Of a stretch of 64,000 bases of DNA, positions 3,319 to 26,504 are shown in pieces; the first letter of the stretch is position 1, and every line of letters begins with the position of its first letter. The notes below the pieces were generated by a model. It searched no databases. It had not been told where the DNA came from and saw only the letters and a program-made list of their open reading frames with translations. Source of the stretch: Acidimicrobiia bacterium (GTDB taxonomy: Bacteria > Actinomycetota > Acidimicrobiia > Spongiisociales > ZC4RG35). The stretch covers positions 6,984 to 70,983 of the forward strand of contig DASZOM010000006.1 of assembly GCA_035550735.1 (NCBI GenBank), in the 5' to 3' direction. The position numbers and the translations under genes are program-made.

Positions 3319-4385
3319 GACACTTCGACAGGTGTGCCGACTCGTGCCGCCACCCGGTCGCCGACCTCGGAGGTGCTTGCGCCCATCTCTCCGGCACGCA
3401 GCGACGGGAGCTCACCCGCCACGGCAGCCACCGCCGCGCCGACCGAGTCGGCTGCCTCCTGCTCGCCTAGGTGGCGGAGCATCATGCCGGCCGCCCCGAT
3501 CGCGGCCAGGGGATTGATCTTCCCTGTGCCTTCGAATCCGGGGGCGGTGCCGCCGATGGGCTCGAACATGGACACGCCCTGCGGATTCACGTTGGCGCCG
3601 GAGGCGATACCCATGCCACCCTGGATGGCAGCCGCCAGGTCGGTGATGATGTCCCCGAACATGTTGTCGCTGACTATGACGTCGAAGCGGCCCGGGTCCT
3701 CGACCATCCAAAGACAGGTGGCGTCGACGTGGGCGTAGGCCGTCTCGACGTCGTCGTATTCCTCTGAGACCTCGGCGAAGACCCGCGCCCAGAGATCCCA
3801 CGCGTACTTGAGGACGTTGGTCTTTCCGCAGAGAGTGACGTGCCGACGCGGCCGGGTGCGGGCGAGCTCGAAGGCGTATCGGACGCATCTCTCCACACCG
3901 TGTCTCGTGTTGACCGACTCCTGCACGGCCACCTCGTAGGCCGTGCCCTTGGCGGTGAAGCCGCCCTTGTCCACATAGAGGCCCTCGCTGTTCTCCCGGA
4001 CCACGACGAAGTCGATGTCGTCGGGGGTGACCGCCCCCAGAGGGCTCTTGACGCCGGGATGGAGCTTGACCGGTCGCAGATTGATGTACTGGCCGAGCTC
4101 GCGGCGCATCCTGAGCAGGATGTCCTGTTCCAGGATGCCCGGCGCGACCTCGGGGTGGCCGATTGCTCCGAAGAGGATCGCGTCCGAGCCGCGGAAACCT
4201 TCGAGATCCTCCTCGGTCAGTGTCTCGCCGGTGCGTATATAGCGCTCACCACCCAGATCGGAGCGGGTGAGCTCGAATTCGATCCCATGACCGGATGACG
4301 TCGCAACGAGCACCTTCTCCGCCTCCGCCACGACTTCGGGCCCGGTCCCGTCGCCGGGCACGACCGCGATCCGGTATGCGGTCAT
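3315..4385 (-). CDS. leuB: 3-isopropylmalate dehydrogenase
   Basis: [14 protein letters not shown]-terminus, NLRP and [10 protein letters not shown] blocks of isocitrate/isopropylmalate dehydrogenases. Sits upstream of leuCD. Confidence 0.9.
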
Positions 4386-12479: not shown

Positions 12480-13184
12480 ATGACTGCCGGCCGCGGCTTG
12501 CTATCTGACACAATTCAGGGCGTGCCCGTCGAGCCGCCCAGGTCCCGATTCGATCTACCCGATCCCAGTGCCGCCGACGGGGACGTGGTGGCGGTCGGTG
12601 GCGACCTGGAGGCAGGGACACTTCTCCAGGCATATCGAAGGGGGATGTTCCCCATGGACCTCCCCGACGGGCATCTGGGGTGGTGGTCACCGGTTGAGCG
12701 GGCGATCATCCCACTCAGCGGCCTGCGCGTGACCCGGTCGCTGCGACAGTCGACTCGTCGCTACTACATCACCGTCGACGAGGACTTCCTGTCGGTGATC
12801 CGCTGGTGCGCCGACATCGATCGGCCCAATGGCTGGATCACCGAGGAGGTGGTCGAGGCCTACACCACGTTGCACGATCTCGGCTGGGCCCACTCGATCG
12901 AGGTCTGGGATTCGGAGGGCTCGCTGGTCGGCGGGCTCTACGGAGTGGCCATCGGCGGGCTGTTCGCCGGGGAGAGCATGTTCCATCTGTCGAGGGACGC
13001 GTCCAAGGTGGCCCTGGTGCATCTGGTCGTGCTCATGAACCATGGTGGCAGCCTTCTCGATGTGCAGTGGCTGACCCCACATCTGGAGTCTCTTGGGGCG
13101 GTGGTCATCGGTCGCGACGAGTACCTGAGGCGTCTCCCCGAGGCTCTGTCCCGGCAAGGGCCGTTCGACAGGACCGGCGGTTAG
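12480..13184 (+). CDS. aat: leucyl/phenylalanyl-tRNA--protein transferase
   Basis: AYRRGMFPM, GWWSP..RAIIPL, GGLYGVAIGGLFAGESMFH, and KVALVHLV blocks. Start uncertain. Confidence 0.85.
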   Translation: MTAGRGLLSDTIQGVPVEPPRSRFDLPDPSAADGDVVAVGGDLEAGTLLQAYRRGMFPMDLPDGHLGWWSPVERAIIPLSGLRVTRSLRQSTRRYYITVDEDFLSVIRWCADIDRPNGWITEEVVEAYTTLHDLGWAHSIEVWDSEGSLVGGLYGVAIGGLFAGESMFHLSRDASKVALVHLVVLMNHGGSLLDVQWLTPHLESLGAVVIGRDEYLRRLPEALSRQGPFDRTGG

Positions 13185-13210: not shown

Positions 13211-14068
13211 ATGACGAGGACGTTCGTAGCGGGCATCGACCTGACCGCGATGGGCCGCAGAGTCGCCGACAGGGCCCGGCTCATGGCAGAGACCTCCGGG
13301 GGGACAGTCCATCTCCTCCATGTGCTCGAGCCGGTGGCGGAGGCCATGATCGAGCCCGGTCTGGCAAGGATCATGCGTGAGCATCAGAGGGCCGAGGCGG
13401 CCACCGTGGCGGAATGGCTGCGGGATAGATCCCAGGTCGACGTGGCGCTCGAGGTGGTGAAAGGGTCGCCTGCTTGGGAGATCGCCTCCCGGGCCAAGAA
13501 GGCCGAGATGGTGATTCTCGGCTCCTCCAGTGTTGATGCCTTCACCGCGGGACCGGTGACGCACCGGGTCGCCCGGATGGCGACATCCGACATCCTGGTG
13601 GTGCGTCGTCAACCCCGCGTTCCCTATCGAAGGGTCATCACGGCGGTCGACTTCTCCGAGGCGTCGCGACGCGCTATCGAGAGGTCGCTGGAGCTGTTTC
13701 CGGATTCCGAGATAACCGTCCTCTACTCGCTGCCCACACAGTTCGACTCACTCCTATCCGACGCCGGGCTCTTCCGGGAGGAGATGGATGCCTCACGAAG
13801 CGAGCGCATGGAGACCGCCCGTGACCGGATGCTGGAGTTCGCCCACCCATGGGGAGGCCGGGTGCGGACCCAGGTGGTGGACGGGCCGCCTGCGGAGACC
13901 ATCGACGAGACCGTGCGGCGACGCGGTGCGGACCTCGTCGTGGTGAGCAGCCGCGGTGCGACCGCCACCCGCATGGTCCTCCTGGGCACGGTGGCCGAGG
14001 GCCTGTTGGGCCGGGCGCCGTGTGACGTGCTGATCGTCAGGTCGGCGTCGAGCTTTCGCCGGCCCTGA
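13211..14068 (+). CDS. tandem universal stress protein (UspA x2)
   Basis: Two USP units (VHLLHV..., LGSSSVD..., VVVSSRGATAT...GTVAEGLLGRAPCDVLIV). The ATG at 13211 is used; the upstream part of the 420-aa track ORF is Arg-rich shadow overlapping aat. Confidence 0.85.
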   Translation: MTRTFVAGIDLTAMGRRVADRARLMAETSGGTVHLLHVLEPVAEAMIEPGLARIMREHQRAEAATVAEWLRDRSQVDVALEVVKGSPAWEIASRAKKAEMVILGSSSVDAFTAGPVTHRVARMATSDILVVRRQPRVPYRRVITAVDFSEASRRAIERSLELFPDSEITVLYSLPTQFDSLLSDAGLFREEMDASRSERMETARDRMLEFAHPWGGRVRTQVVDGPPAETIDETVRRRGADLVVVSSRGATATRMVLLGTVAEGLLGRAPCDVLIVRSASSFRRP

Positions 14069-14072
14069 TCGG

Positions 14073-14930
14073 TCAGATGCCAGCCAGTGCCTTCTTCACC
14101 GCCCTGGCGGCGAAGACCTTGGCCAGATGTGCCTTGTACTCCTCGGTGCCGTAGAGGTCTTCGAGGACCGTGATGCCGTCCGCCGCTCTCTCCGCAGCCG
14201 CCTTGATCGCCTCGTCCGAGCCATCGGTGCCGATGAGGGCTTCGCCCACGCCGGCGGCGAGCTGGGCGTGTGTGCCCACTCCGGTGATCGCCACCCGGGC
14301 ATCCTCGATCGTCCCGTTCGACTTTCGGACCCATGCCGCCGCGGCGGCGACCGCGTAGTCGGAGTGCCCGCCACGACGACCGAGCTTGTCATAGGCGGAG
14401 CCCTCACCCGGGCCGGCCTTGGGAATCCGTATCGACGTGAGGATCTCCTCCGGTGTCAGCGCACTGGTCAACGAGTCGACGAAGAAGTCAGCCGCGGCGA
14501 TCTCACGGGTCCCCGAAGCTGACGCCGCCACCATGACCGCGTTGCATGCGATCGCCGCCGCCGGCTGATCGGCGGCCACGTCTGCGTGGGCCAACGAGCC
14601 GCAGGTCGTCCCCCGGTTGCGCACCTGGACATCACCGGTCATCGACGCAGCCTCGGCGAGAGCGGCCGCATTGGCTCGCACCAGGTCGTGCGACATCGTG
14701 GTGCGATGACGCACCAAGGCGCCGATCTCGACATGATCCCCGGTGTCGTTCACCCCGTCGAGACCGCCGATCCGGCCGATGTCGACGAGGAGCGCAGGGG
14801 AGAACAGCCGCATCTTCATGAGGGGCAGCAGGCTCATGCCGCCCGCCATGACCTTTGCATCCTCGCCGAGCGCCCCGAGGGCCTCGTCGAGCGAGGTCGG
14901 TGCCACGTAGTCGAAAGCACGTGGATACAT
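14073..14930 (-). CDS. molybdenum hydroxylase FAD-binding subunit (CoxM/CutM-like)
   Basis: FDYVAPTSLDEALGAL...AGGMSLLPLMKMRL. Start overlaps the large-subunit stop by 1 nt. Confidence 0.85.
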   Translation of the reverse strand: MYPRAFDYVAPTSLDEALGALGEDAKVMAGGMSLLPLMKMRLFSPALLVDIGRIGGLDGVNDTGDHVEIGALVRHRTTMSHDLVRANAAALAEAASMTGDVQVRNRGTTCGSLAHADVAADQPAAAIACNAVMVAASASGTREIAAADFFVDSLTSALTPEEILTSIRIPKAGPGEGSAYDKLGRRGGHSDYAVAAAAAWVRKSNGTIEDARVAITGVGTHAQLAAGVGEALIGTDGSDEAIKAAAERAADGITVLEDLYGTEEYKAHLAKVFAARAVKKALAGI

Positions 14931-17308
14931 CAGCTCATCCTCGCTTCCTGAATCGCCGCCCAGACCTTCCTGGGACGTAGCGGCATGTCGATGTTCTTGA
15001 CCCCGAGCGGCGAAAGCGCGTCGATCACCGCATTGACCAGGGTGTGCGCCGAGCCGATCGTCCCGGCCTCACCGATCCCCTTCACACCCATCGGGTTGAT
15101 CGGAGAGGGAGTGACCGTGTGCGCCAGCTCGTACGAAGGCAAGTCCCCAGCCGTGGGCAGGGGATAGTCGATCAGCGACCCGGTCAGTAGGTTGCCGTTC
15201 TCGTCGAACAGGGCCTCTTCGAACATCGCCTGACCGATTCCCTGAGCCACGCCACCATGGATCTGGCCGTTGACGATCATCGGGTTGACCACGTTGCCGC
15301 AGTCGTCGACCGCCACGTACTTGAGGATCTCGACGTTGCCGGTGTCGGCGTCGACCTCTACGACGGCGAGATGCGTCCCGAACGGCCAGGTGGCGTTGCC
15401 CGGGCTGAACATCGACTGCGCCTCCAGACCCGACTCCACGCCCTCCGGGAGCGTGTGCGCCTGGTATGCGGCCTTGGCGATGTCGGCCCAATCGACCTTC
15501 TTGTCGGGCGAGCCGGCCACATGGGCCGCACCGTCGGCGAACTCGATGTCGTCTGCGGAGGCCTCGAGCATGTGGGCTGCGATCTGTGCCGCCTTGGCCT
15601 TCACCTGCTGGGTGGCCTGGTAGGCGGCCGCGCCGTCGACCGATATCGACCTGGAGCCGAACGTGCCGATCCCCATCGGGTGGTCACGGGTGTCGCCATG
15701 GTGGACCCTGACCCGATCGACCGGGATCCCCAAACCGTCCCCGACGATCTGGGACCACGTCGTCTCGTGGCCCTGACCGGTCGGGCCGGTGCCGATGATC
15801 ACCGTCACCGTCGCGTCCGGGTTGACCCGGACCAGGCCCGACCCGTTGAACGACGAGGGGAGGCCATAGGTGGCCCAAGAGAACCCGATCTCGGCGAGCA
15901 CAGCGGGCCCGAATCCGCACACCTCGACATAGGACCCGATGCCGATCCCGACATGACGTCCCTCGGCGCGGGCGTCGTCCCGCATCTTCAGCAAGCCCTG
16001 GTAGTCGGCGATCTCGATCAGCTTGTCCACCGCCGCGTCGTAGTTCCCCGAGTCGAGCGAGAACCCGCACCCCATCGTCGCCGGGAACTCATCGGGCTGC
16101 CAGAAGTTGCGACGACGCACCTCCAGTGGGTCCATCCCGATCTCCCGGGCGTATGCGTCGATGATGCGTTCCAGGTAGTAGATCGCCTCCGGCCGCCCCG
16201 CCCCGCGGTAGGCGTCGGTGGTCATCGTGTTGGTGACCACACAGTCGACCTTCCAACCGATAGGCATCTTGTACTGGCCCGAGGCGATCCAGAGACCGAG
16301 CAGCGGGATGGCGATGGTGAAATTCTGGTCGTAGGCGCCCATGTCTGCCAGCGCGTCGAGCTTGTAGCCGAGGAACTGGCCGTCCTTGGTGCCCACCAGG
16401 GTGGCGGTGCCCACCCAACCTCGTCCGTGGATGGTGGAGCTCGCCGCCTCCCGCCGGGTCTCGGTCCACTTGACCGTGCTGCCCAGCTCCCGTGCGACCC
16501 AGGCGGCGAGGATCTCGTCGTTGTAGACGTTGAGCTTGCAGCCGAATCCACCGCCGACCTCGGGGGCGATCACCCGGACATCCGAGGCCGCCACCCCGAG
16601 CATCTTGGAGATGGCGCCGCTCAGGGCGTGGGGGACCTGGGTGGAGCTGTGGACCGTGAAACGGCCATAACCGGGGTTGTACTCCGCCATCACCGATCTC
16701 GGCTCGATGGCAACCGGGATGAGACGCTGATTGGTCATCTCCATCGAGACCACGACCGCGTCGTCGCGCTGCATCGCCTCGTCGACCTGCGGTGTCTGGT
16801 CCTCCAGGCCCAATGCCGGCCAGTAGCCGTGGTACGTCCAGGTGAGGGTGATGTTGGAATCGAGGTCGTCGTGGACCTTGATCTCGTCGGTGGCCGCCTT
16901 TTTCAGATCGATCACCGCCGGCAGCACGTCATAGTCGACCTGGATCGCCTCGACGGCGTCCTGAGCCTGATAGCGGCTCTCTGCGACCACCAGGGCGACG
17001 GCCTCGCCGAGATGGTTGACCTGGCCGTCGGCGAGAAGTGGCCGCAGCTTGCCCGTTGTCACCTGGGCGAGCAGCGGGCCGAGATGGGCGACGTCGTCGT
17101 GTGTGTAGACCGCGACCACGCCCGGCATCGCCTTCGCCGCGCTGGTGTCGATCGAGTTGATCCTCGCCCTCGCCACCGGGGAGCGGTGGAAGGCCATGTG
17201 GAGAAGCCCGGTGGGGTTGAGGTCGTCGACGTAGAGACCGGTTCCCTGGATGAGAGCGGGGTCTTCCCGCCGGCGCACCGCCCCACCCATGACACTCGTG
17301 GTTGCCAT
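14930..17308 (-). CDS. molybdenum hydroxylase large subunit, form-II CoxL-like
   Basis: Xanthine-dehydrogenase-family large subunit. The active-site loop reads AYRGAGR, the form-II/putative signature, not the form-I AYxCSFR. Confidence 0.9.
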   Translation of the reverse strand: MATTSVMGGAVRRREDPALIQGTGLYVDDLNPTGLLHMAFHRSPVARARINSIDTSAAKAMPGVVAVYTHDDVAHLGPLLAQVTTGKLRPLLADGQVNHLGEAVALVVAESRYQAQDAVEAIQVDYDVLPAVIDLKKAATDEIKVHDDLDSNITLTWTYHGYWPALGLEDQTPQVDEAMQRDDAVVVSMEMTNQRLIPVAIEPRSVMAEYNPGYGRFTVHSSTQVPHALSGAISKMLGVAASDVRVIAPEVGGGFGCKLNVYNDEILAAWVARELGSTVKWTETRREAASSTIHGRGWVGTATLVGTKDGQFLGYKLDALADMGAYDQNFTIAIPLLGLWIASGQYKMPIGWKVDCVVTNTMTTDAYRGAGRPEAIYYLERIIDAYAREIGMDPLEVRRRNFWQPDEFPATMGCGFSLDSGNYDAAVDKLIEIADYQGLLKMRDDARAEGRHVGIGIGSYVEVCGFGPAVLAEIGFSWATYGLPSSFNGSGLVRVNPDATVTVIIGTGPTGQGHETTWSQIVGDGLGIPVDRVRVHHGDTRDHPMGIGTFGSRSISVDGAAAYQATQQVKAKAAQIAAHMLEASADDIEFADGAAHVAGSPDKKVDWADIAKAAYQAHTLPEGVESGLEAQSMFSPGNATWPFGTHLAVVEVDADTGNVEILKYVAVDDCGNVVNPMIVNGQIHGGVAQGIGQAMFEEALFDENGNLLTGSLIDYPLPTAGDLPSYELAHTVTPSPINPMGVKGIGEAGTIGSAHTLVNAVIDALSPLGVKNIDMPLRPRKVWAAIQEARMS

Positions 17309-17808
17309 CAGCTCATCCCTTCCCAGTCAGGTGGTGGCGGTTCTTCGCCACGGATCTTGGCCCCTGCATACTCGATGGCCCGAACGATGTTGTGATATCC
17401 GGTGCAGCGACACAGGTTGCCCTCGATGCCGTGGCGAATCTCGGCCTCGGTCGGGTTCGAGTTCTCATCGAGGAGGGCGACCGCGGCCATGATCATCCCC
17501 GGTGTGCAATAGCCGCACTGCAGCCCATGTCGCTCCCAGAACCCCTCCTGCACGGGGTGGAGCTGGCCGTTGTCGGCGAGACCCTCGATCGTGGTGATCT
17601 CTGCCCCATCCGCCTGCACGGCGAGCATGGTGCACGACTTGATCGCCATCCCGTCGAGATGAACGGTGCACGCCCCGCAGTAGCCCGTCTCACAGCCGAC
17701 ATGGGTCCCGGTGAGCCGGAGGTTCTCTCTGATGAAGTGGACCAACAGGGTCCTCGGCTCGACGTCGGCGGAGACGCTCCTGCCATTGACCGTCATCGAA
17801 ACTTCCAT
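17308..17808 (-). CDS. molybdenum hydroxylase [2Fe-2S] small subunit (CoxS-like)
   Basis: [12 protein letters not shown] and CGYCTPG...LCRCTGY cluster motifs. Confidence 0.9.
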
Positions 17809-17893
17809 GGGAAGACCCTTTCCGTAGGTCGGTCGAGATCACCGGAACATATCAACTGGCGACGGGGTGCGTGTTCCGAATCCCCTCGGATTC

Positions 17894-19252
17894 TCAGCGA
17901 CCGGATCGAGGCAGCGTGACCTGGAAGGTGGTGCCGGTCGCGCCCGTGGTCAGGTCGATGGAGCCACCGATCCTGTTGAGGATGGTGTGCACGGTGTGGA
18001 GCCCCAGCCCGGTTCCCTTGCCCGGTTCCTTCGTCGTGAAGAATGGGTCGAAGATGCGCGCTGTGACATGCTCGGGGATCCCCTGCCCGGTGTCGGAGAA
18101 CGTGACCACCAGCGAGTCGTCCATGTTGCGACTGGCGATGGTGAGTGTCCCTCCCGTCTCGGCCATGGCGTCGGCGGCGTTGTCGATCAGGTTGGTCCAC
18201 ACCTGATTGAGGTCCCGCCCGGGCACCTCGAGACGCGGGACCGGCTCCTCGAAGTCGAGCTCGACCTCGATGTCGGCGAGCTTGTGCTTGAGGAGAATCA
18301 GAGTGTCCCTTATGCCGTCGGTGGGGTCGATCTCCTGCACCGGGGCCCGGTCGACGAAGGAGTACTCCTTCACCACTCTCACCAACTCTGAGACCCGACG
18401 CGCCGCGATCACGAGCTCGGACATCACCTGTCTCGTCGCCAGGATCAGCCCGATCCAACGCACCTCGTGGGCCTTGAGCTCATCCGGGCTGTTCGCCACC
18501 ACCTCCTTCAATGTCTCGACCCTCCACCCCGCCTCGACCAGAGCCGGGGCGATCTGCCAGGGGTCCTCGACTCCGATCTCCTCGAGCCACGAGGCCAGCT
18601 CGTCCTCGGCCGCGGAGCGCTCCAGGGCAGACAGTGGCCGCTCCGGCTTCTCCACCGTCGCCAGGACGGTCGGATTGTCGTAGCCGGTGGCGAGCGCCTC
18701 GACCTCGCGGTCCAGCTCGCCGTGGAGCTTCGACAGCTCAGAAGTGCTTCGGGCCACGGCGGCAGCCGGGTTGTTCAGCTCGTGCATGAGCTGTGCCGCC
18801 ATCCGGCCGAGCGCGGCCATCCGCTCCTCGTGACGGAGGGTGTCCTCGATGCCGCGAAGGCGTGAGGTCACGGTGCGGAACATGCGGCGAACCACCCTGG
18901 GATCGCTGAGCAGATCCTCGAACGCGGCCACCGGGACGCGGATCACTGCGGAGTCGATCAGAGCGGTGACCGTCGCGGTGCGTGGCGCCTCGTCGAGAAG
19001 CGCGATCTCACCGACGACCTCGCCCGGGCCGATCCGGGCCAACTCCACATCCTTCGATGCGCTGTGCTTGGACACGGAGAGCTCCCCGGAGACCACCACG
19101 TACATCTCCCCGGACTCGGAGCCCTCATCGATGATGACCGTGTCCGCGGGGACCTCGATCAGCTCCGTCGACCTCGACACGCGCTCCAGGAGATCGTCGG
19201 GGAGATCGGTGAAGTAGGGCAGACCTCGCAGGACCTCTGAGATGTCGCTCAA
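17894..19252 (-). CDS. sensor histidine kinase with N-terminal cyclic-nucleotide-binding domain
   Basis: CNB domain (GEMYVVVSGELSV, GEVVGEIALLDEAPRTATV), H-box MHELNNP, and HATPase blocks (DNAADA, DTGQGI, GTGLGL). The TTG start overlaps the upstream stop (TTGA). Confidence 0.85.
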   Translation of the reverse strand: MSDISEVLRGLPYFTDLPDDLLERVSRSTELIEVPADTVIIDEGSESGEMYVVVSGELSVSKHSASKDVELARIGPGEVVGEIALLDEAPRTATVTALIDSAVIRVPVAAFEDLLSDPRVVRRMFRTVTSRLRGIEDTLRHEERMAALGRMAAQLMHELNNPAAAVARSTSELSKLHGELDREVEALATGYDNPTVLATVEKPERPLSALERSAAEDELASWLEEIGVEDPWQIAPALVEAGWRVETLKEVVANSPDELKAHEVRWIGLILATRQVMSELVIAARRVSELVRVVKEYSFVDRAPVQEIDPTDGIRDTLILLKHKLADIEVELDFEEPVPRLEVPGRDLNQVWTNLIDNAADAMAETGGTLTIASRNMDDSLVVTFSDTGQGIPEHVTARIFDPFFTTKEPGKGTGLGLHTVHTILNRIGGSIDLTTGATGTTFQVTLPRSGR

Positions 19253-20904
19253 AGCGAGGCGAGATGCTGGTGGATGAAGCGTATGGCCGTTGCCCCCTCA
19301 CCGGTTGCCCCCGCCACCCGCCTGATGGAGCCATGACGGACGTCCCCGGCTACGAAGATCCCCGGAACCGAGGACTCCAGGGGGAGGGGATCACGGTCGA
19401 CGTTCCAATCGATCAGGGGCCCCAGGTCGGCTCCGGTGAGGACGAAGCCCTTCTCGTCGAGTTGCACCAGGTCGCCGAGCCAGTCGGTCTGGGCTCTCTG
19501 GCCGATGAAGATGAACAGTGCGCCGGCCTTGTGCTCCCTCTGCTCGCCGCTCTCCAGATCCTCCACGACGAGTCGCTCGAGATGGCCTTCACCTTGCGCT
19601 GCGACGATGCGGGAACGGGTGAGCAGGGAGATCGTCTCCGTGGCATCGATGTTGTCGATCAGGTACTGGGACATTCCCTCGGTGAGGTCGCTGCCCCTGA
19701 TCACGATGGTCACCTCGTCGGTGAACCTGGTGAGGAACAGCGCCGCCTGGCCCGCCGAGTTCCCCCCGCCGACCACGAACATGGGCTGGTTGCGATGGTT
19801 CTCTGCTTCGAACGTCGACGTCCCGTAGTACACCCCGGCCCCGACCAGCTCGTCGAGCCCTTCGGCGGGAAGACGCCGGTACTCCACCCCGCTGGTGACC
19901 ACGAGGGCCTTGGCGGTGACGGTGCTGCCGTCGGCGAGATGGACGATCCGATAGGGATCCTTCCGCTCGACACGCTCCACCTTCGCCGGGACCAGGACCT
20001 CGGTGCCGAATCGTTGTGCTTGTGCGGATGCCCGCCGGGCCAGGTCTGATCCGCTGATCCCGCTCGGGAAACCCAGGTAGTTCTCTATCTTGGAGGACTG
20101 CCCGGCCTGGCCACCGGGCGCCGAGGACTCGATGAGAAGCGTCTTCAGCCCCTCCGAGGCACCGTAGACGGCGGCGGCGAGACCGGCCGGCCCGGCGCCG
20201 ACGATGACGACGTCGTAGGTAGGTGAGGTGGCCTGGGTCTTCAACCCCATCCGGTCGGCCAGCTGCTGGATGCTCGGCTTGAGCAGATAGCCGCCGTCGG
20301 GGAAGACGAGGAGGGGGAGATCGGTGTTGGACGCCCCGACGGCGGAGACGAGCTGTTCCGCCTCGGGATCCACGCCGACGGTGAAAGAGCGGTAGGGGAG
20401 CTGGTTCATCGCGAGGAAGCCCTTGAGCTCGAAGACATCCCGTGACCATGCGCTCCCGACCACGCGCACCCCTTCGAAGCTGGGGCGGAAGGAGGCTCGC
20501 CAGTCGAGGAGTAGGTCGTCGAGTATCGGATAGAGCTTCTCCTCAGGTGGATCCCAGGGTTTCATGATGTAGTGGTCGAGGCCGACCTGGTTAATGGCGT
20601 CGATGGCCGCATCGGTGTCCGCGTATGCGGTGAGCAGGGTCTTCTTGGTCTCCGGGAAGAGAGGAATCGACTCGCGCAGGACATCGATGCCCGTCACCCT
20701 CGGCATGCGCTGATCGGCGACGATCAAGGCGAGTGGCGTGCCCCGCACCGAGAGATCCTTGAGGACCTCGATGGCCTCCTCCCCGCTGGTGGCTCCCAAC
20801 ACGGAGTACTCGTCTGCGTAGTGGGCGCGGAGGTCGCGCTGGACGGCACGCATCACCTCGGGCTCGTCGTCGATGGCGAGGATGGCCGGCTTGACGGTGG
20901 TCAT
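19249..20904 (-). CDS. response-regulator receiver fused to a thioredoxin-fold linker and a TrxR-like FAD/NAD(P) flavoprotein, cysteine-free
   Basis: REC blocks (ILAIDDEPE, LIVADQRMP, KTLLTAY, IMKPW), then YDVVIVGAGPAGLAAAVYG and FVVGGGNSAGQAALFL Rossmann motifs and GIFVAGDV. The ATG at 20904 overlaps the zf-UBP stop (ATGA). Confidence 0.85.
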   Translation of the reverse strand: MTTVKPAILAIDDEPEVMRAVQRDLRAHYADEYSVLGATSGEEAIEVLKDLSVRGTPLALIVADQRMPRVTGIDVLRESIPLFPETKKTLLTAYADTDAAIDAINQVGLDHYIMKPWDPPEEKLYPILDDLLLDWRASFRPSFEGVRVVGSAWSRDVFELKGFLAMNQLPYRSFTVGVDPEAEQLVSAVGASNTDLPLLVFPDGGYLLKPSIQQLADRMGLKTQATSPTYDVVIVGAGPAGLAAAVYGASEGLKTLLIESSAPGGQAGQSSKIENYLGFPSGISGSDLARRASAQAQRFGTEVLVPAKVERVERKDPYRIVHLADGSTVTAKALVVTSGVEYRRLPAEGLDELVGAGVYYGTSTFEAENHRNQPMFVVGGGNSAGQAALFLTRFTDEVTIVIRGSDLTEGMSQYLIDNIDATETISLLTRSRIVAAQGEGHLERLVVEDLESGEQREHKAGALFIFIGQRAQTDWLGDLVQLDEKGFVLTGADLGPLIDWNVDRDPLPLESSVPGIFVAGDVRHGSIRRVAGATGEGATAIRFIHQHLASL

Positions 20905-21167
20905 GCCCTGAACAACTGGTCCTCGAAGCAGTAGCGCCAGCTCTCTCCGGGCTCGACCGACGTGATCAGGGGATGGCCCTCGTTCTCCCAATGGTGTCGG
21001 GCGTGCCGGTTCTTCGAGACGTCACAACACCCGACACGCCCACAGACGAGGCAGGCACGGAGATGGACCCAGGTGTCGCCGGCCTCGACACATTGATCGC
21101 AGACCCTGGAGAGCGGGGAGACGACGGTGGACAGGCTCTCGAAGTGCTCACATGTCTGTGTTGGCAA
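20901..21167 (-). CDS. UBP-type zinc-finger protein
   Basis: CEH...CDQC...WVHLRACLVCGRVGCCD...RHARHH...HP pattern typical of zf-UBP. 88 aa. Confidence 0.8.
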   Translation of the reverse strand: MPTQTCEHFESLSTVVSPLSRVCDQCVEAGDTWVHLRACLVCGRVGCCDVSKNRHARHHWENEGHPLITSVEPGESWRYCFEDQLFRA

Positions 21168-21305
21168 TGCACACCACCTTCCGCAGCCAACCGGGACCCT
21201 CGACCTTGCTTTCGATCATATTGGCTCCTGGGGGAGTCGCCACTCGTGGGTCTGCTAAATCTTGTCGCCAGGAGGGCCGATTTGCCGGAGCAGGACTCGA
21301 TAGAA

Positions 21306-21611
21306 GTGCGTGACGTGCCCGAGCGGCACGCCTACGTCGTCACTGTCGACGGGGTCGAGGCGGGCATGGCCGTCTATCACATCCGCGGTGGCCGCCATAT
21401 CTTCGTCCACACCGAGGTCGACGAGCAGTACTCGGGTCTGGGAGTAGGTAGCAGGCTGGTCCGCGCCGCCCTCGAGGATGTACGGGCACAGGGTGGGTCG
21501 CTCGTCGCGCTGTGCCCGTTCGTGTCTGCCTACATGAGACGTCATCCCGAGTTCGACGATCTCGTCGACCGGGAGATGACCGAGCAACTGGAGAGACGAC
21601 GTGAGAGCTGA
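21306..21611 (+). CDS. small GNAT-like N-acetyltransferase (YjdJ-type)
   Basis: ...VDGVEAGMAVYHIRGGRHIFVHTEVDEQYSGLGVGSRLVRAALEDVRAQGGSLVALCPFV. The GTG at 21306 is chosen; the upstream part of the track ORF overlaps the divergent operon. Confidence 0.65.
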   Translation: MRDVPERHAYVVTVDGVEAGMAVYHIRGGRHIFVHTEVDEQYSGLGVGSRLVRAALEDVRAQGGSLVALCPFVSAYMRRHPEFDDLVDREMTEQLERRRES

Positions 21612-21647: not shown

Positions 21648-24275
21648 ATGGGATGGCGGAGGGCTCGAGTGATGCTGCCGACCGGCACGGTCACCTTCGT
21701 GTTCACGGACATCGAGGACTCCACCGGTTTGGCCCAACGCCTCGGTGATAGTGACTTCTCGAGGCTGGTCGACCTCCACAACTCAGTGATCCGCGCCGTC
21801 GTCGAGCGACACGGAGGTGTCGAGGTTGCGACCGAGGGAGATGCCGTCTTCACCGTCTTCGAGGACCCTCTCGCCGCGGTGACCGCAACCGTCGACATCC
21901 AAGACGCCATCGACAACGCCGAATGGGAGAGTAGAGAGGAGCCGAGAGTGCGAATCGGCGTCCACACGGGGCAAGGCTCGCTCGGGGGCGACAACTACGT
22001 CGGTCTCGACGTCCACAAGGCGAGTCGCATCGCCAACTGCGGCAATGGAGCCCAGATCCTGCTCTCGGACACCACCGCCCACCTCGTGGAGGATCGTCTT
22101 CCCGACGGTGTGACGGTGCGCACACTCGGCAGGTATCGGCTCTCCGGTTTCCCGAGTGCGGTGCCCATCCACCAACTCGAATGGCCCGGGTCACCTGGCC
22201 AGTACCCGGAGTTGCGCGCACCACGTGCCGAATCACGTGTCCCCGTCCCGCTCTCCGACTTCATCGGCCGGGAAGAGGAGATATCGCGGGCCCTCGCGGT
22301 GCTGGGCGAGAGCCGACTGGTCACACTGACCGGCCCGGGTGGCACCGGCAAGACCAGGCTGTCGCTGGAGCTGGCACGAAGGGTCGAGCCTGACCTTCCC
22401 GACGGAGCCGTGTTCGTGACTCTGGCTGCGGTCCGCGACCCCGATCTCATCCCGGCGACCATCCTCGACGCCCTGGGACTGAAAACGGCCGGAGGCATCG
22501 ACCCCCTGGTCCATCTCGAGCGTCACCTCGCGGACAAGACGATGCTGCTCGTGATCGACAACTTCGAGCAGGTAGTGCGGGGCGCAGGGATCGTGGTGCG
22601 GATACTCGAGTCCGCTGCAGGCGTGAAGGTGCTCGTCAGCTCGCGGATACCGCTTCGGGTGTTCGGCGAGCGGGAATTCCCCGTGCCGCCACTCGATGTC
22701 CCCGACCCGGCAGCGGACCTGTCCCGGGTCGAGGAGAGCGCCGGGGTGCGCCTGTTCGTGACCCGTGCCGAGGCGGTGCGCCCCGGTTTTCACCTCGACG
22801 AGTCGAATGCGGGCACGGTGGCGACGATCGCGCGGTCGCTCGACGGGCTGCCGTTGGCGATCGAGCTCGCCGCTTCCCGCATGCGCAGCCTCACCCCGGA
22901 GGCGATCCTGGAGCGTCTCGACAACCGGCTCCTCGCCGCCGATGCCCCGGATCGGCCCCAGCGCCAGCAGACGATCGTCAACGCCATCGGATGGAGCTAC
23001 GACCTGCTCGACGAGCCGACGCGGCGTCTATTCGAAGACCTGTCCGCTTTCGTGGGCGAATTCGGGCTGCCCGAGGCGGAGGCCCTCTGTCGCTTGTCGA
23101 GCTCCCCGATCGATGTCATCGACGGGATCACCCATCTGGTGGATCACAGCCTGCTTCGACAGACCCAGACCAGCGGTGATCCGAGGTTCCGGATGCTGAC
23201 CGTCATCCGCGACTTCGGCTACGGGGCCTTGGTGGCGCGGGGTGACGAGGCCGAGATCGTCAAGCGACACGGGGAGGTGTACCTCGCCGTCGCGGAGTCC
23301 GCGGCCCCCGAGATCCTCACCTCTCGTCAGCAGTACTGGCTGCGACGGCTCGCCGCCGATCACGACAACCTGCGAGCCGCCTACGACCGTGCCCTGGATC
23401 GCGGCGACGTAACCACGGCGATGAGGCTTGGAGCGAGCCTTTGGCGCTTCTGGCAGATCAGGGGGCATCTAGCCGAGGGCAGGGAACGTCTCGAGCGCGT
23501 CCTCATCGGTGGCGGTGAAGTCGATCCCTTGCTGAGAGCGCGCGCCCTGACGGGGATGGCCGGAATCATCTACTGGCAAGGAGGATTGGAGGAGCTCCTC
23601 CCGGTCTACGAAGAGGCATTGGACCTGTTCCGGGAGCATGGGGTCGAGTCGGATGTCGCCGAGGGCCTGTACAACCTGGCTTTTCCTTGCGCCTACGTTG
23701 GCGAGATCGACCGTGCCAAGTCATTGCTCAACGAGGCGATGGACATGTGGGAGCGGATCGGAGACGATCAAGGCGTGGCCCGGGCGCTGTGGGGGCTTGG
23801 AGTGGTGTTCAGCTATTCGGATGACCATGAGAGAGTCATCGAGCACGCTGCTCGGTCGGTCGAGGTCTTCGAGGGCCTCGACGCGCCCTTCGATCTGGGA
23901 TGGGCCCTGTTCATGGAGGCACAGGCCAACGCCAAGCTCGGCCGGTTCGAGGAGGCCGAGCGATTACTGGCGAGGGCTTTGGAGATCTTCGCAGGGGTGA
24001 GCGATGTCTCGGCGCTGACGCTCATCACGGAAGTGACCGTCCTCTTAGCCGTGGCCAGGGAAGACCGTGCCGCGGCCGGGTTCCTCGCAGGTGCCGCCCA
24101 TCGATTGAAGGCAGACACCGGTGTCGAGATCGGCGATGTCCGGCTGAACCAGTTCCCCCAGGTAGAGGCGTTCCTCAGTGAGCGCGACGAGGCGTTGGAA
24201 ACCGCTTTCCAAGAGGGTTTCGCCTCCGGGCTCGACGATGTGATCGCGAGGGCCAGGGCTCTGCTTCGGTCGTGA
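21648..24275 (+). CDS. class III adenylate/guanylate cyclase - P-loop NTPase (STAND) - TPR protein
   Basis: Cyclase blocks GTVTFVFTDIEDST, ATEGDAVFTVF, and VRIGVHTGQ. Walker A LTGPGGTGKTRL and Walker B LLVIDNFEQ. The C-terminal ~300 aa are TPR-like repeats. No HTH was seen. Confidence 0.85.
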   Translation: MGWRRARVMLPTGTVTFVFTDIEDSTGLAQRLGDSDFSRLVDLHNSVIRAVVERHGGVEVATEGDAVFTVFEDPLAAVTATVDIQDAIDNAEWESREEPRVRIGVHTGQGSLGGDNYVGLDVHKASRIANCGNGAQILLSDTTAHLVEDRLPDGVTVRTLGRYRLSGFPSAVPIHQLEWPGSPGQYPELRAPRAESRVPVPLSDFIGREEEISRALAVLGESRLVTLTGPGGTGKTRLSLELARRVEPDLPDGAVFVTLAAVRDPDLIPATILDALGLKTAGGIDPLVHLERHLADKTMLLVIDNFEQVVRGAGIVVRILESAAGVKVLVSSRIPLRVFGEREFPVPPLDVPDPAADLSRVEESAGVRLFVTRAEAVRPGFHLDESNAGTVATIARSLDGLPLAIELAASRMRSLTPEAILERLDNRLLAADAPDRPQRQQTIVNAIGWSYDLLDEPTRRLFEDLSAFVGEFGLPEAEALCRLSSSPIDVIDGITHLVDHSLLRQTQTSGDPRFRMLTVIRDFGYGALVARGDEAEIVKRHGEVYLAVAESAAPEILTSRQQYWLRRLAADHDNLRAAYDRALDRGDVTTAMRLGASLWRFWQIRGHLAEGRERLERVLIGGGEVDPLLRARALTGMAGIIYWQGGLEELLPVYEEALDLFREHGVESDVAEGLYNLAFPCAYVGEIDRAKSLLNEAMDMWERIGDDQGVARALWGLGVVFSYSDDHERVIEHAARSVEVFEGLDAPFDLGWALFMEAQANAKLGRFEEAERLLARALEIFAGVSDVSALTLITEVTVLLAVAREDRAAAGFLAGAAHRLKADTGVEIGDVRLNQFPQVEAFLSERDEALETAFQEGFASGLDDVIARARALLRS

Positions 24276-24321: not shown

Positions 24322-24399
24322 GGGCCCGTAGCTCAATCAGGTCAGAGCAGCGGACTCATAATCCGTTGGTTGCAGGTTCAAGTCCTGCCGGGCCCACCA
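24322..24399 (+). tRNA. tRNA-Met (anticodon CAT), CCA encoded
   Basis: Cloverleaf folded by hand: acceptor GGGCCCG/CGGGCCC, D-stem GCTC/GAGC, anticodon stem GCGGA/TCCGT with loop CTCATAA, T-arm GCAGG-TTCAAGT-CCTGC, discriminator A, CCA. It lacks the initiator GGG/CCC anticodon stem. Ile2 (lysidine) identity cannot be excluded. Confidence 0.9.
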
Positions 24400-24403
24400 C
24401 CAC

Positions 24404-24823
24404 ATGGAAATCGATCGTCAGGGCCCGGCTGATGTAGAGCGGGTTATCGCCGCGGGGAATCTCTTCGACCATCCCCCGAAGAGGGACCTGGTCGAGAGCT
24501 TTCTCGCCCGGGATGGACATCACCTGATCTTCGCGAACGTGGATGGAGTCGACGTCGGCTTCGTGAGCGGCGTCGAGATCGCCCATCCCGACAAGAGAGT
24601 GGAAATGCTGCTCTACGAACTGGGCGTGGACGAACCTCACCGAGGACGGGGCATCGGGCGGGCCCTGACCCTGGCACTCGTCGCAGTGGCGGTAGAGGCC
24701 GGTTGCCGTGGCATGTGGGTGACGACCGAAGGAGACAACGAGGCCGCACTGGCTACATACCGGTCCGCGGGAGCATCCGGGCCCGAATCGGGTGTCATCC
24801 TCGAATGGCGCTTCGACGACTGA
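24404..24823 (+). CDS. GNAT-family N-acetyltransferase
   Basis: Acetyl-CoA motif HRGRGIGRALTLALV plus the NEAALATYRSAG block. The ATG lies 5 nt after the tRNA CCA end. Confidence 0.75.
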   Translation: MEIDRQGPADVERVIAAGNLFDHPPKRDLVESFLARDGHHLIFANVDGVDVGFVSGVEIAHPDKRVEMLLYELGVDEPHRGRGIGRALTLALVAVAVEAGCRGMWVTTEGDNEAALATYRSAGASGPESGVILEWRFDD

Positions 24824-24840
24824 ACAGGAACCCGTTGCCA

Positions 24841-24868
24841 TGTCGAAATCCGCGATCCTTTGTTCGTC
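24841..24868 (+). promoter_or_regulatory. candidate ECF42-type promoter (TGTCGA-N18-CGTC)
   Basis: TGTCGA at 24841-24846 and CGTC at 24865-24868, 40 nt upstream of the YCII ATG. The motif is assigned from recollection of the published ECF42 consensus. Confidence 0.3.
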
Positions 24869-24908
24869 GTATTCGAGCAAGCATTCCTCCGTCGAGAAGG
24901 GAGAAGAG

Positions 24909-25281
24909 GATGCCCCGTTATGCAGCTCTCATCTATGTGACTGAGGACGACGATCCCTCGGACCAGGCAACGAACGACGCGGTGATGGCCGACTACAACG
25001 CGTTCACCGCGGCGGTGACCGCAGCCGGCGTCATCGCCGGAGGGGAGGCGTTGGAGCCGACGAGCACCGCGACCACGGTTCATGTCGAGGGTGGGAAGGG
25101 CGGGAAGGTCGTTCACACCGATGGCCCGTACGCGGAGACCAAGGAAGTCCTCGGCGGGTTCTACCTGCTCGACTGTGCCGACCTCGACGAGGCCCTGGAC
25201 TGGGCTGCCCAGATCCCGGGCGCCTGGCACGGGCTGGTGGAGGTCCGCCCGGTCGTCGACTTCAGCCAGGGTGGGCAGTGA
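24909..25281 (+). CDS. YCII-related (DGPF) domain protein
   Basis: MPRYAALIY...TDGPYAETKEVLGGFYLLDCADLDEALDWAAQIP. Confidence 0.85.
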
Positions 25282-26504
25282 CAGTCGAGGAGACGATACG
25301 AGTAGAGGGTGGCCGGATCCTGGCCACCCTCATTCGATTGACCCGCGACTTCGACCTTGCCCAGGACGCACTCCAGGAGGCCGCGGTCACAGCCCTCGAG
25401 CAATGGACCGCCAGGGGCATTCCCGAGAGCCCGGCCGCGTGGCTGACGACGGTCTCCAGACGCAAGGCGCTCGATCTGATGCGTCGGGAAGGGCGACGTC
25501 GGGCCAAGGAGGGGGAAGCACAGATGACGCTGCTGATCGGAGCAGAGGAGGACGGCGCCGGTGACGACCGCCTCCGCTTGATATTCACCTGTTGTCACCC
25601 TGCGCTCTCGCCCGAAACCCGGGTGATGCTGACCCTTCGCACCATCGGCGGGCTCAACACCCATGAGATCGCCCGGGTGTTCCTGCTCAACGAGGCCACG
25701 GTCGGGCAAAGGATCAGCCGTGCCAAGAGGAAGATCTCGGTGGCAGGGATTCCCTACCGGATCCCTGCGGGCCACGAGCTGCCTGATCGGCTCCCCGCAG
25801 TGCTCGGCACGCTCTATCTGATGTTCACCACGGGCCATCATGCCATCGCAGGCCGTCTCGACTCCCGTGTCGATCTCGCCGACGAGTCGATACGTCTCAC
25901 CCGCATGCTGTCGACCCTGATGCCCGACGAACCGGAGGTGCACGGCCTGCTCGCCCTGATGTTGGCCACGCATGCTCGACGTGCCGCCCGGGTCGATGCG
26001 CGTGGTCATCTCGTGCTGCTTCCCGATCAGGACCGGTCTCTCTGGGATCACGCAGCCATCGACGAGGCCAAGACGATCGTGGAGCGGGCTCTCCGTCTTC
26101 GCCGCGCCGGGGCCTATCAGATCGAGGCGGCGATCGCTTGTCTCCATGGGCGAGCCCCCTCCGACGAGGAGACCGACTGGGCGCAGATCGTGGATCTCTA
26201 CCGGGCGTTGGAGAGAATCGAGCCGGGACCGGTGACCACTGTCAATCGGGCGGTGGCCGAGTCGAAGGTGACAGGCCCGGCCGCCGGACTAGCCCTGCTC
26301 GAGGGTGTCGACGACGTCGAGCATTGGCATCTCTATTGGGCGGTTCGTGCCGAGCTGCAACGGCAACTGGGAGACATGACGGGGGCTTCTCGCGCCTACG
26401 AGCGCGCCCTGGCGTGCGAGATGAACGACTCCGACAGGGATCACCTCCAGCTTCGCCTCGAGTCACTGCCCGGAACGACGGGGGTTCCGTCGATCAGGGC
26501 CTGA
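25278..26504 (+). CDS. ECF sigma factor with long C-terminal TPR-like extension (ECF42-type)
   Basis: Sigma-2 region (DLAQDALQEAAVTALEQW) and sigma-4 region (LTLRTIGGLNTHEIARVFLLNEATVGQRISRAKRKI), plus a ~220-aa extension. The GTG start overlaps the YCII stop. Confidence 0.85.
   Translation: MTVEETIRVEGGRILATLIRLTRDFDLAQDALQEAAVTALEQWTARGIPESPAAWLTTVSRRKALDLMRREGRRRAKEGEAQMTLLIGAEEDGAGDDRLRLIFTCCHPALSPETRVMLTLRTIGGLNTHEIARVFLLNEATVGQRISRAKRKISVAGIPYRIPAGHELPDRLPAVLGTLYLMFTTGHHAIAGRLDSRVDLADESIRLTRMLSTLMPDEPEVHGLLALMLATHARRAARVDARGHLVLLPDQDRSLWDHAAIDEAKTIVERALRLRRAGAYQIEAAIACLHGRAPSDEETDWAQIVDLYRALERIEPGPVTTVNRAVAESKVTGPAAGLALLEGVDDVEHWHLYWAVRAELQRQLGDMTGASRAYERALACEMNDSDRDHLQLRLESLPGTTGVPSIRA

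Follow-up and report, generated by a model that had tools for sequence, protein, structure and literature searches.

The question raised by this locus is what a two-component system controls when the output of its response regulator is a flavoprotein. The locus lies in a 64,000-nucleotide stretch of DNA from an Acidimicrobiia bacterium (contig DASZOM010000006.1), hereafter called the window. It consists of three genes encoding a small UBP-type zinc finger protein (zf-UBP), a response regulator with a receiver (REC) domain, and a histidine kinase with a cyclic-nucleotide-binding (CNB) domain. The initial annotation, made from the sequence alone, had proposed that a cyclic nucleotide controls a redox enzyme through phosphorylation, with the zinc finger as an accessory. 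Our analysis shows that the window copy belongs to a cytoplasmic two-component module that is widespread, with members in more than ten bacterial phyla, and indicates that its flavoprotein, although descended from disulfide-reducing proteins, has lost their redox cysteines. The genes and their junctions are as follows.

20901-21167, minus strand: zf-UBP gene, 88 amino acids, TTG start (Pfam zf-UBP, 8e-13, 48.8 bits)
19249-20904, minus strand: response-regulator gene, 551 amino acids, with REC, glutaredoxin (Grx)-like and thioredoxin reductase (TrxR)-like parts (Pfam Response_reg and Pyr_redox_2)
17894-19252, minus strand: CNB-histidine kinase gene, 452 amino acids, TTG start (cNMP_binding 1e-20, HATPase_c 3e-22)
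20901-20904, minus strand: ATGA overlap of the zf-UBP stop codon TGA (20903-20901) with the regulator start codon ATG (20904-20902)
19249-19252, minus strand: TTGA overlap of the regulator stop codon TGA (19251-19249) with the kinase start codon TTG (19252-19250)

Coordinates and overlaps were read from the sequence, and the three-gene minus-strand operon stands as it had been described. The regulator start was placed at the ATG at 20904 and not at the upstream TTG at 20991, because a length of 551 amino acids is shared by nearly all of its 120 closest homologues. In related loci the kinase match begins at the last base of the final regulator codon, so the overlap geometry recurs. Four-base overlaps are commonplace in bacterial operons and unremarkable alone; that the same gene set is kept in different phyla and in different gene orders goes beyond chance. 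The Pfam search returned cNMP_binding (73.8 bits) and HATPase_c (79.6 bits) in the kinase, Response_reg (52 bits) and Pyr_redox_2 (122 bits) in the regulator, and zf-UBP in the small protein, the gathering cut-offs being 27.5 bits for cNMP_binding and 22.7 bits for zf-UBP. Every domain named beforehand was thereby recovered. HisKA (PF00512) gave no match in the kinase at E <= 0.01.

The regulator is built of three parts.

20530-20904, minus strand: REC domain, residues 1-125, with the codon of the phospho-acceptor D64 at 20713-20715
20230-20487, minus strand: cysteine-less glutaredoxin/mycoredoxin-like domain, residues about 140-225, with W153-S154-R-D-V in place of WCGYC
19252-20223, minus strand: TrxR-like FAD/NAD(P)H module, residues 228-551, aligned to the S. 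aureus TrxR (4GCM) at 1e-47

As had been claimed, the REC domain is complete: D12, D13, D64, T92 and K115 are invariant in 38 homologues (alignment A1), and this part of the AlphaFold2 (AF2) model reaches a pLDDT of about 85-93. The domain that follows it had been overlooked. A profile of 24 family members matches mycoredoxin-1 (Rv3198A, 2LQO) at 1e-10 over the whole fold; 15 of these 24 members match Pfam Glutaredoxin, which the window copy on its own does not. The AF2 topology of residues 146-218 (beta-alpha-beta-alpha-beta-beta-alpha) is that expected for a thioredoxin fold. The active-site WCGYC of mycoredoxin-1 aligns with WSPRS in the family consensus and with WSRDV in the window protein. 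While the fold of mycoredoxin-1 and the glutaredoxins is matched, the replacement of WCGYC by W-S-x-x-[S/V] throughout the family makes thiol-disulfide chemistry impossible in this domain.

A similar loss is seen in the C-terminal 320 residues, which are the part that aligns with true thioredoxin reductases. The FAD and NAD(P)H motifs are kept and invariant: GxGxxG (GAGPAGL), GGQ, GGGNSAGQ and GD (AGDVR). The CAVC of 4GCM aligns to G-TSTF, from G361, within YYG-TSTF-E, and E366, which is invariant, aligns with the aspartate that follows CxxC in the S. aureus enzyme. The CxxC site reads G[VI]YYG-x4-EA in nine family members from five phyla. After clustering at 50% identity only 1 of 123 representatives has a CxxC there, the family motif being G[VI][YF]YG-x4-EA. 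The regulator contains no cysteine at all, nor do 112 of its 120 closest homologues, and its TIGR01292 score (228.2 bits) lies below the NCBIfam cut-off of 343.45. Having lost the CxxC, the regulator cannot act as a thioredoxin or disulfide reductase, and its flavoprotein, to judge from the sequence, does not qualify as a thioredoxin reductase. The protein appears to derive from a Grx-TrxR disulfide relay from which the thiol chemistry is gone and in which the flavin and nicotinamide sites are kept. The output had been described as a FAD/NAD(P)H flavoenzyme in place of a DNA-binding domain: a flavoprotein that does not bind DNA is indeed present, and the term redox enzyme has to be qualified by the missing CxxC, the total lack of cysteine and the dead Grx-like domain. 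Regulator identity is 60-76% within the bacterial class and about 50% across phyla, and the C-terminus is of fixed length, ending in H-x-[YH]-L-x-x-x.

With TrxB (TIGR01292; S. aureus 4GCM, E. coli 1TDE) the regulator shares the two-Rossmann fold by sequence, the FAD, NAD(P)H and GD motifs and an acidic residue at the post-CxxC position; it differs from TrxB by the absence of CxxC or any cysteine, by its sub-cut-off score and by the additional N-terminal REC and Grx-like domains. The TrxR-type ferredoxin-NADP+ reductases YumC of B. subtilis (3LZW) and 3AB1 of Chlorobaculum have likewise lost CxxC from a TrxR fold and serve a non-disulfide acceptor. They are much more distant from the regulator than the true TrxRs (E values of 1e-17 to 1e-19) and have neither a REC nor a Grx-like domain. 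As CxxC-less precedents they support, in kind, non-disulfide electron transfer by the regulator, and no ferredoxin-like gene was found as a conserved neighbour among 80 cross-phylum loci. The architecture itself has been catalogued: two censuses name a "REC-TrxB" class of response regulators (PMC5847659; PMC9953108), and the window regulator, with REC fused to a TrxB-like Pyr_redox_2 domain, is a typical member. In the parts of these censuses that treat the class, architecture is given without function, and the missing CxxC, the dead Grx-like domain, the kinase family and the zf-UBP go unrecorded. A full-text literature search turned up no study of function for the regulator, for kinases of this family or for the zf-UBP proteins of bacteria, although the zf-UBP neighbourhood may already have been mentioned in comparative-genomic work. 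The trio had been thought unstudied, which agrees with this search as regards function and has to be amended as regards the regulator architecture, already listed as "TrxB".

Two elements of the kinase bear on signal input and phosphotransfer.

18782-18784, minus strand: codon of H157, the predicted phospho-acceptor, in the H-box MHELNNPAAA; invariant in alignment A3
18968-19012, minus strand: phosphate-binding cassette G81-V95, GEIALLDEAPRTATV, of the canonical pattern G-E-x-A-L ... R-[ST]-A

The H-box LAALGxxAAxLxHELNNPAAA is kept across phyla and H157 is invariant in 47 kinase homologues. The N, G1, F and G2 boxes (NLIDNAADA, DTGQG, FDPFFTTK and GTGLGL) are all invariant as well. In the AF2 model (mean pLDDT 82.5) a CNB beta-barrel (30-107) precedes a single continuous helix (118-190) that bears H157; then come a three-helix insert (209-251), a second helix (257-296) of the dimerization and histidine phosphotransfer (DHp) domain and the catalytic and ATP-binding (CA) domain (306-448). 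An insert of about 65 residues (about 191-256) thus separates the two DHp helices. The best Foldseek matches of this model are the DHp-CA cores of ZraS, HK853, YycG and CckA, and the modelled fold is that of a classical DHp-CA core despite the missing HisKA match. No membrane segment was seen in the kinase, which is therefore read as a soluble sensor.

The cassette reported in the initial annotation is present, and 47 Acidimicrobiia kinases have G81, E82, A84, L85, P90, R91 and A93 without exception. Its R-T-A pattern had been taken as a mark of cAMP-type domains, which it is not. PKA carries R-A-A, PKG R-T-A and bacterial cAMP binders R-S/T-A, and R-T-A cannot tell cAMP from cGMP. The PDB matches of the CNB domain (PKG, PKA, CRP, MlotiK1 and Mt-Pat) have both PKG and PKA at the top. 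The canonical cassette (G-E ... R-[ST]-A) was found in 53 of 72 Acidimicrobiia kinases versus 1 of 63 cross-phylum kinases, so that cyclic-nucleotide input looks clade-specific. Control by a cyclic nucleotide is accordingly plausible, and a good inference, for the clade of the window; as the general logic of the family it does not hold. In a Nostoc edaphicum plasmid (L083, 9290-10681) a kinase of the same family has an N-terminal REC-like domain where the CNB-like domain would be, so the sensor module of this kinase family is exchangeable.

In order to evaluate the co-occurrence of the three genes, three sets of loci were compiled from contigs, with one genome per species. Set (a) comprised 78 loci of close regulator relatives (59-76% identity), nearly all from Acidimicrobiia metagenome-assembled genomes (MAGs); set (b) comprised 80 loci obtained through a cross-phylum family alignment, 69 of them of REC type; and set (c) comprised 80 zf-UBP-centred loci from more than 12 phyla. 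The order zf-UBP, response regulator, histidine kinase (zf-RR-HK) with tight junctions was present in about 66 of the 78 Acidimicrobiia loci (~85%). Across phyla, 61 of the 69 REC-type loci have a family-specific kinase gene beside that of the regulator and in the same orientation, and zf-UBP is present in 21 of the 69 (~30%). The pair is thus the core of the module and zf-UBP is a recurrent, facultative third component. Kinase-regulator pairs occur in Actinomycetota, Chloroflexota, Acidobacteriota, Bacteroidota, Cyanobacteriota, Gemmatimonadota, Planctomycetota, Verrucomicrobiota and Pseudomonadota; Streptomyces, Nocardia, Mycolicibacterium and Burkholderiales are also among the taxa of set (b). 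Four gene orders were seen (zf-RR-HK, RR-HK-zf, HK-RR-zf and zf-HK-RR). Annotated records show RR-HK-zf with 4-nt overlaps in Streptomyces fungicidicus p1, zf-HK-RR in a Deinococcus sp., and RR with HK in Deinococcus aetherius, Caballeronia and Nostoc. All-against-all clustering of open reading frames (ORFs) from the 80 cross-phylum loci revealed no other conserved neighbour beyond RR, HK and zf. The conserved co-occurrence anticipated for the trio is therefore far beyond chance for the gene set, with zf-UBP being optional. As to family size, 3,341 representatives of 50%-identity clusters match the window regulator at E <= 1e-30, a figure that includes ordinary TrxB-type proteins.

Seen from the zinc finger, the picture is complementary. 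The TrxR-like family, in its REC or its CNB form, is what most often neighbours a zf-UBP gene (about 19-23 of 80 loci), followed by DUF5996 (PF19459, 4e-137) in 12 of 80, mainly in Acidobacteriota (for example L199, 5420-6331). The putative zinc ligands of the window protein are C6, H8, C22, C25, C39, C42, C47, C48, H55, H59, H65 and C80. Bacterial homologues are 50-60% identical across phyla and share the signature C-x-H ... C-x2-C ... GDTWVHLR-x-C-x2-CG-x-VGCCD-x-SKN-x-HA ... HP ... EPGE-x-W-x-[WY]-C, of which GCCD-x-SKN-x-HA is at least 90% conserved in 124 of them. The closest solved relative is a bacterial structural-genomics "hypothetical protein" (PDB 2IDA, 3.9e-22), the matches to HDAC6 and USP5 being no better than 1e-4 to 1e-2. 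The eukaryotic domains belong to the same Pfam family and share the zinc-ligand framework; the bacterial proteins differ from them in being free-standing and in having the WVHLR insertion and the GCCD-x-SKN motif. The aromatic residues of the HDAC6 pocket align with W32, W77 and Y/W79, which are kept. HDAC6 R1155 and USP5 R221, together with a tyrosine, bind the Gly-Gly carboxylate of ubiquitin. In two HMMER alignments this HDAC6 arginine falls on D49 or V50 and the tyrosine on V50 or S51, a placement that comes from sequence alignment alone and has a gap beside the site. D49 is invariant in 13 cross-phylum zf-UBPs (alignment A5) and at least 90% conserved in the 124 homologues. Canonical Gly-Gly tail binding is therefore doubtful. 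The protein is best described as a putative zinc-binding accessory that partners TrxR-like proteins of the regulator family, and its role is probably protein or peptide recognition of another kind.

Two further candidate roles for zf-UBP were rejected. That it reads the C-terminus of the regulator itself is not borne out, the H-x-[YH]-L-x-x-x tail being identical with or without an adjacent zf-UBP gene. A rubredoxin-like iron carrier appears unlikely, the mixed Cys/His ligand sets being in the style of a zinc site. As separate observations, in all three of the zf-UBP loci inspected first (L079, L080 and L081) a gene for a heavy-metal P-type ATPase (HMA/E1-E2), one for CDF cation efflux or both lie no more than 6 kb away, and some zf-UBP proteins are named by JGI as part of CPA2 antiporters; this may be a metal or ion link, or coincidence.

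A sister architecture was also recovered. Among the best 150 representatives at 50% identity, about 97 are of the REC type and about 29 carry a fused CNB-like domain, as in Streptomyces angustmyceticus WP_260640578 and Deinococcus aquaticus WP_273991014. These sisters share the Cys-less Grx-like and TrxR-like body (42-48% identity over residues about 126-551) and differ in that the CNB-like domain is fused directly, without kinase and REC. Their NCBI product name is misleading, as read from their sequences, which have no CxxC. They too adjoin zf-UBP; the order in S. angustmyceticus is clpB-trxA-zfUBP-CNB_TrxRL. These architectures suggest that a sensor of CAP/CNB fold feeds the flavoprotein either in cis, by fusion, or via a phosphorelay.

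The genes around the window operon give a local context that has to be separated from the module itself.

17308-17808, minus strand: coxS (Pfam Fer2_2)
14930-17308, minus strand: coxL, with the AYRGAGR motif of form II (non-canonical, CO dehydrogenase-like) and not the form-I motif (MoCoBD_1/2)
14073-14930, minus strand: coxM (Pfam FAD_binding_5)
17809-17893, minus strand: 85-bp gap between kinase and coxS, with a short hairpin (GAATCC-GAGG-GGATTC) after the kinase stop, without a T-run
about 13211-14068, plus strand: tandem universal-stress-protein-like (USP) gene, converging on coxM
21168-21290, no strand: divergent intergenic region between the zf-UBP and GNAT genes, presumed from the ORF layout to hold the operon promoter
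21291-21611, plus strand: GNAT gene (Acetyltransf_CG)
21648-24275, plus strand: gene for an 875-amino-acid class III adenylate/guanylate cyclase-STAND/AAA NTPase-TPR protein, 480 bp upstream of the operon, past the GNAT gene

The coxSLM genes lie directly downstream of the kinase. A cox cluster adjoins the module in about 42 of the 78 Acidimicrobiia loci, either upstream (coxSLM-zf-RR-HK) or downstream (zf-RR-HK-coxSLM). Outside the class, CoxL was found in 2 of 80 TrxR-like-centred and 0 of 80 zf-centred loci; cox is a lineage-specific context, outside the core module. A scan detected no terminator-like site between kinase and coxS, and co-transcription of the signalling genes with cox is a possibility suggested by the sequence. 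Additional zf-UBP copies lie inside the cox clusters of four loci (L020, L024, L026 at about 3930-4230 and L071 at 12922-13176), between coxM or coxL and coxS and away from the kinase-regulator pair, which hints at a separate relationship of zf-UBP with Cox in Acidimicrobiia. USP homologues recur in 37 of the 78 Acidimicrobiia loci, and in Streptomyces fungicidicus a USP gene stands divergently beside the regulator (L085, 3859-4731). The GNAT, USP, cox and adenylate cyclase neighbours are all lineage- or window-specific. A promoter scan found no sigma-70-like site in the presumed promoter region 21168-21290.

Gene structure, domain content, the pattern of motifs retained and lost, and co-occurrence across phyla are the observations from which a mechanism can be proposed. 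We infer that in the Acidimicrobiia clade cAMP or cGMP, bound at the kinase CNB domain, would most likely tune autophosphorylation of H157, and that the phosphate would pass to D64 of the regulator. Phosphorylation of REC may then exert control by changing the quaternary or domain arrangement of a TrxR-type dimer, thereby switching the NAD(P)H-dependent passage of electrons from FAD to an acceptor other than a disulfide; candidates for this acceptor are a small molecule, a metal and a partner protein. The zf-UBP protein would serve as an adaptor, binding the flavoprotein or its substrate. We put the probability of this model as a whole at roughly 0.5. Several points weigh against it. With both thiol centres gone, the regulator could equally well be a pseudo-enzyme or a sensor, and its AF2 model is of low quality over the flavin part (pLDDT 65.5). 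The cassette arginine and glutamate are missing from the CNB-like domains of the kinases found beyond Acidimicrobiia and likewise from the three fused CNB domains inspected, whose cassette is degenerate; the cyclic nucleotide is therefore not a conserved signal of the family. The neighbouring cyclase gene is a possible local source of cyclic nucleotide, and as a conserved source it was rejected, since it occurs in only 1 of 78 loci. Finally, zf-UBP is missing from about 70% of the cross-phylum regulator loci and in 61 of 80 zf-UBP-centred loci neither a TrxR-like nor a kinase gene is nearby; it is mostly found elsewhere and hence is not essential to the core.

The alternative that deserves most attention, which we hold tentatively, is that the flavoprotein is a sensor pseudo-enzyme reading the NAD(P)H/NAD(P)+ ratio or the redox state of the flavin. 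It would modulate REC phosphorylation, as a phosphate sink or through kinase feedback, or gate target binding, so that redox and kinase signals are integrated. The family-wide disappearance of both ancestral thiol centres with retention of the nucleotide and flavin motifs fits this well, as do the absence of a conserved acceptor gene beside the pair across phyla and the fixed length of the extreme C-terminus of the regulator. However, the invariant E366 and the strictly conserved YYG...EA motif point to a working active site, and the level of conservation within the class and across phyla is very high for a mere binding scaffold. It is unlikely that in Acidimicrobiia the module assists the neighbouring form-II coxSLM molybdenum hydroxylase, the flavoprotein and/or zf-UBP providing a regulated way in or out for electrons or helping the enzyme to mature and the cyclic nucleotide reporting carbon or energy starvation. 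The frequency with which cox clusters adjoin the module, the extra zf-UBP copies within them, the lack of a detected terminator before coxS and the recurrent tandem USP gene that flanks the cluster would be explained by such a role, but the linkage is gone outside the class and, being confined to Acidimicrobiia, could be mere inherited synteny.

Other alternatives concern the zinc finger. That the flavoprotein and zf-UBP form one split redox or recognition machine seems quite doubtful. In one version zf-UBP, with its invariant vicinal C47-C48, would dock at the site of the lost TrxR CxxC and the flavoprotein would reduce or read a zinc-thiolate switch in trans; in another, the charge-reversed tail pocket of zf-UBP would recruit a protein terminus to the phosphorylation-gated flavoenzyme. 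We find it improbable that zf-UBP is only a frequent neighbour of a functional unit made of kinase and regulator. The many zf-UBP genes without such neighbours, and the many regulator loci without zf-UBP, speak for mere neighbourhood, but the adjacency survives four gene orders and is seen in six phyla or more, neighbouring genes lie close together or overlap, by 4 nt both in the window and in Streptomyces fungicidicus, and zf-UBP is independently associated with the CNB-fused sister proteins. Least credible, at a very low probability, is binding of the Gly-Gly C-terminus of a ubiquitin-like protein, by which the module would be tied to protein tagging or to sulfur transfer in cofactor synthesis. 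The speculative link to Pup made in the initial annotation is of this kind; a MoaD/ThiS-type sulfur carrier is an extension of it made here. The zf-UBP protein is a genuine PF02148 member whose W32, W77 and Y/W79 align with the pocket aromatics of HDAC6, and genes of molybdenum enzymes neighbour the module in Acidimicrobiia. Yet the carboxylate-binding arginine of HDAC6 and USP5 aligns to D49 or V50, no ubiquitin-like gene is among the conserved neighbours, and the module is present in Deinococcota, Cyanobacteriota and Bacteroidota, phyla that are not known to have Pup. The Pup link is for these reasons abandoned, and phosphorylation-switched electron transfer to a non-disulfide acceptor, with zf-UBP as adaptor, is the model that we retain.

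If this model is correct, the family couples phosphorylation to a flavoprotein of Grx-TrxR descent that has no redox cysteines, through a dedicated kinase that is nearly obligatory. To our knowledge, nearly all studied response regulators act in transcription, cyclic di-GMP turnover or chemotaxis, and once its acceptor is identified the family would provide two-component systems with a new kind of output chemistry. The module is widespread and uncharacterised, with Streptomyces, Deinococcus, Mycolicibacterium and Nostoc among its carriers; the window copy is an ordinary member, with an output enzyme that is mis-annotated and an unusual accessory. The annotations "thioredoxin reductase" and "thioredoxin-disulfide reductase" would be corrected by these results, and the facultative zf-UBP partner offers a genetically tractable entry to the role of bacterial UBP-type zinc fingers. 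In Acidimicrobiia, an abundant and poorly cultured lineage of soil and water, the intact cassette and the cox linkage together suggest a cyclic-nucleotide-controlled redox response. Should the flavoprotein and zf-UBP after all form a split machine, the prokaryotic ancestor of the ZnF-UBP domains that bind ubiquitin would have its first function, and two-component signalling a new type of output, which in Acidimicrobiia would answer to a cyclic nucleotide and be tied to a form-II Cox-type molybdoenzyme.

The remaining features of the region lie beyond the cyclase gene.

24322-24396, plus strand: tRNA gene (Rfam RF00005, 75 bits)
24703-25281 and 25278-26504, plus strand: two overlapping ORFs, the second of which (408 amino acids) resembles an extracytoplasmic function (ECF)-type sigma factor by eye

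Promoter, terminator and Rfam scans of the 13-25 kb region returned nothing relevant apart from this one tRNA. In the Deinococcus aetherius and Nostoc edaphicum loci (L082 and L083) the module is followed, a few kb further downstream, by a gene annotated as "low temperature requirement protein A", and in D. aetherius a second kinase paralogue stands beside a small GNAT gene, which echoes the GNAT gene of the window. Lastly, CNB-type TrxR-like and bacterial-type zf-UBP members were found on three archaeal MAG contigs, assigned to Nitrososphaeraceae (L165), Nitrososphaerales (L184) and Methanosarcinales (L232); these reflect either horizontal transfer or binning contamination.

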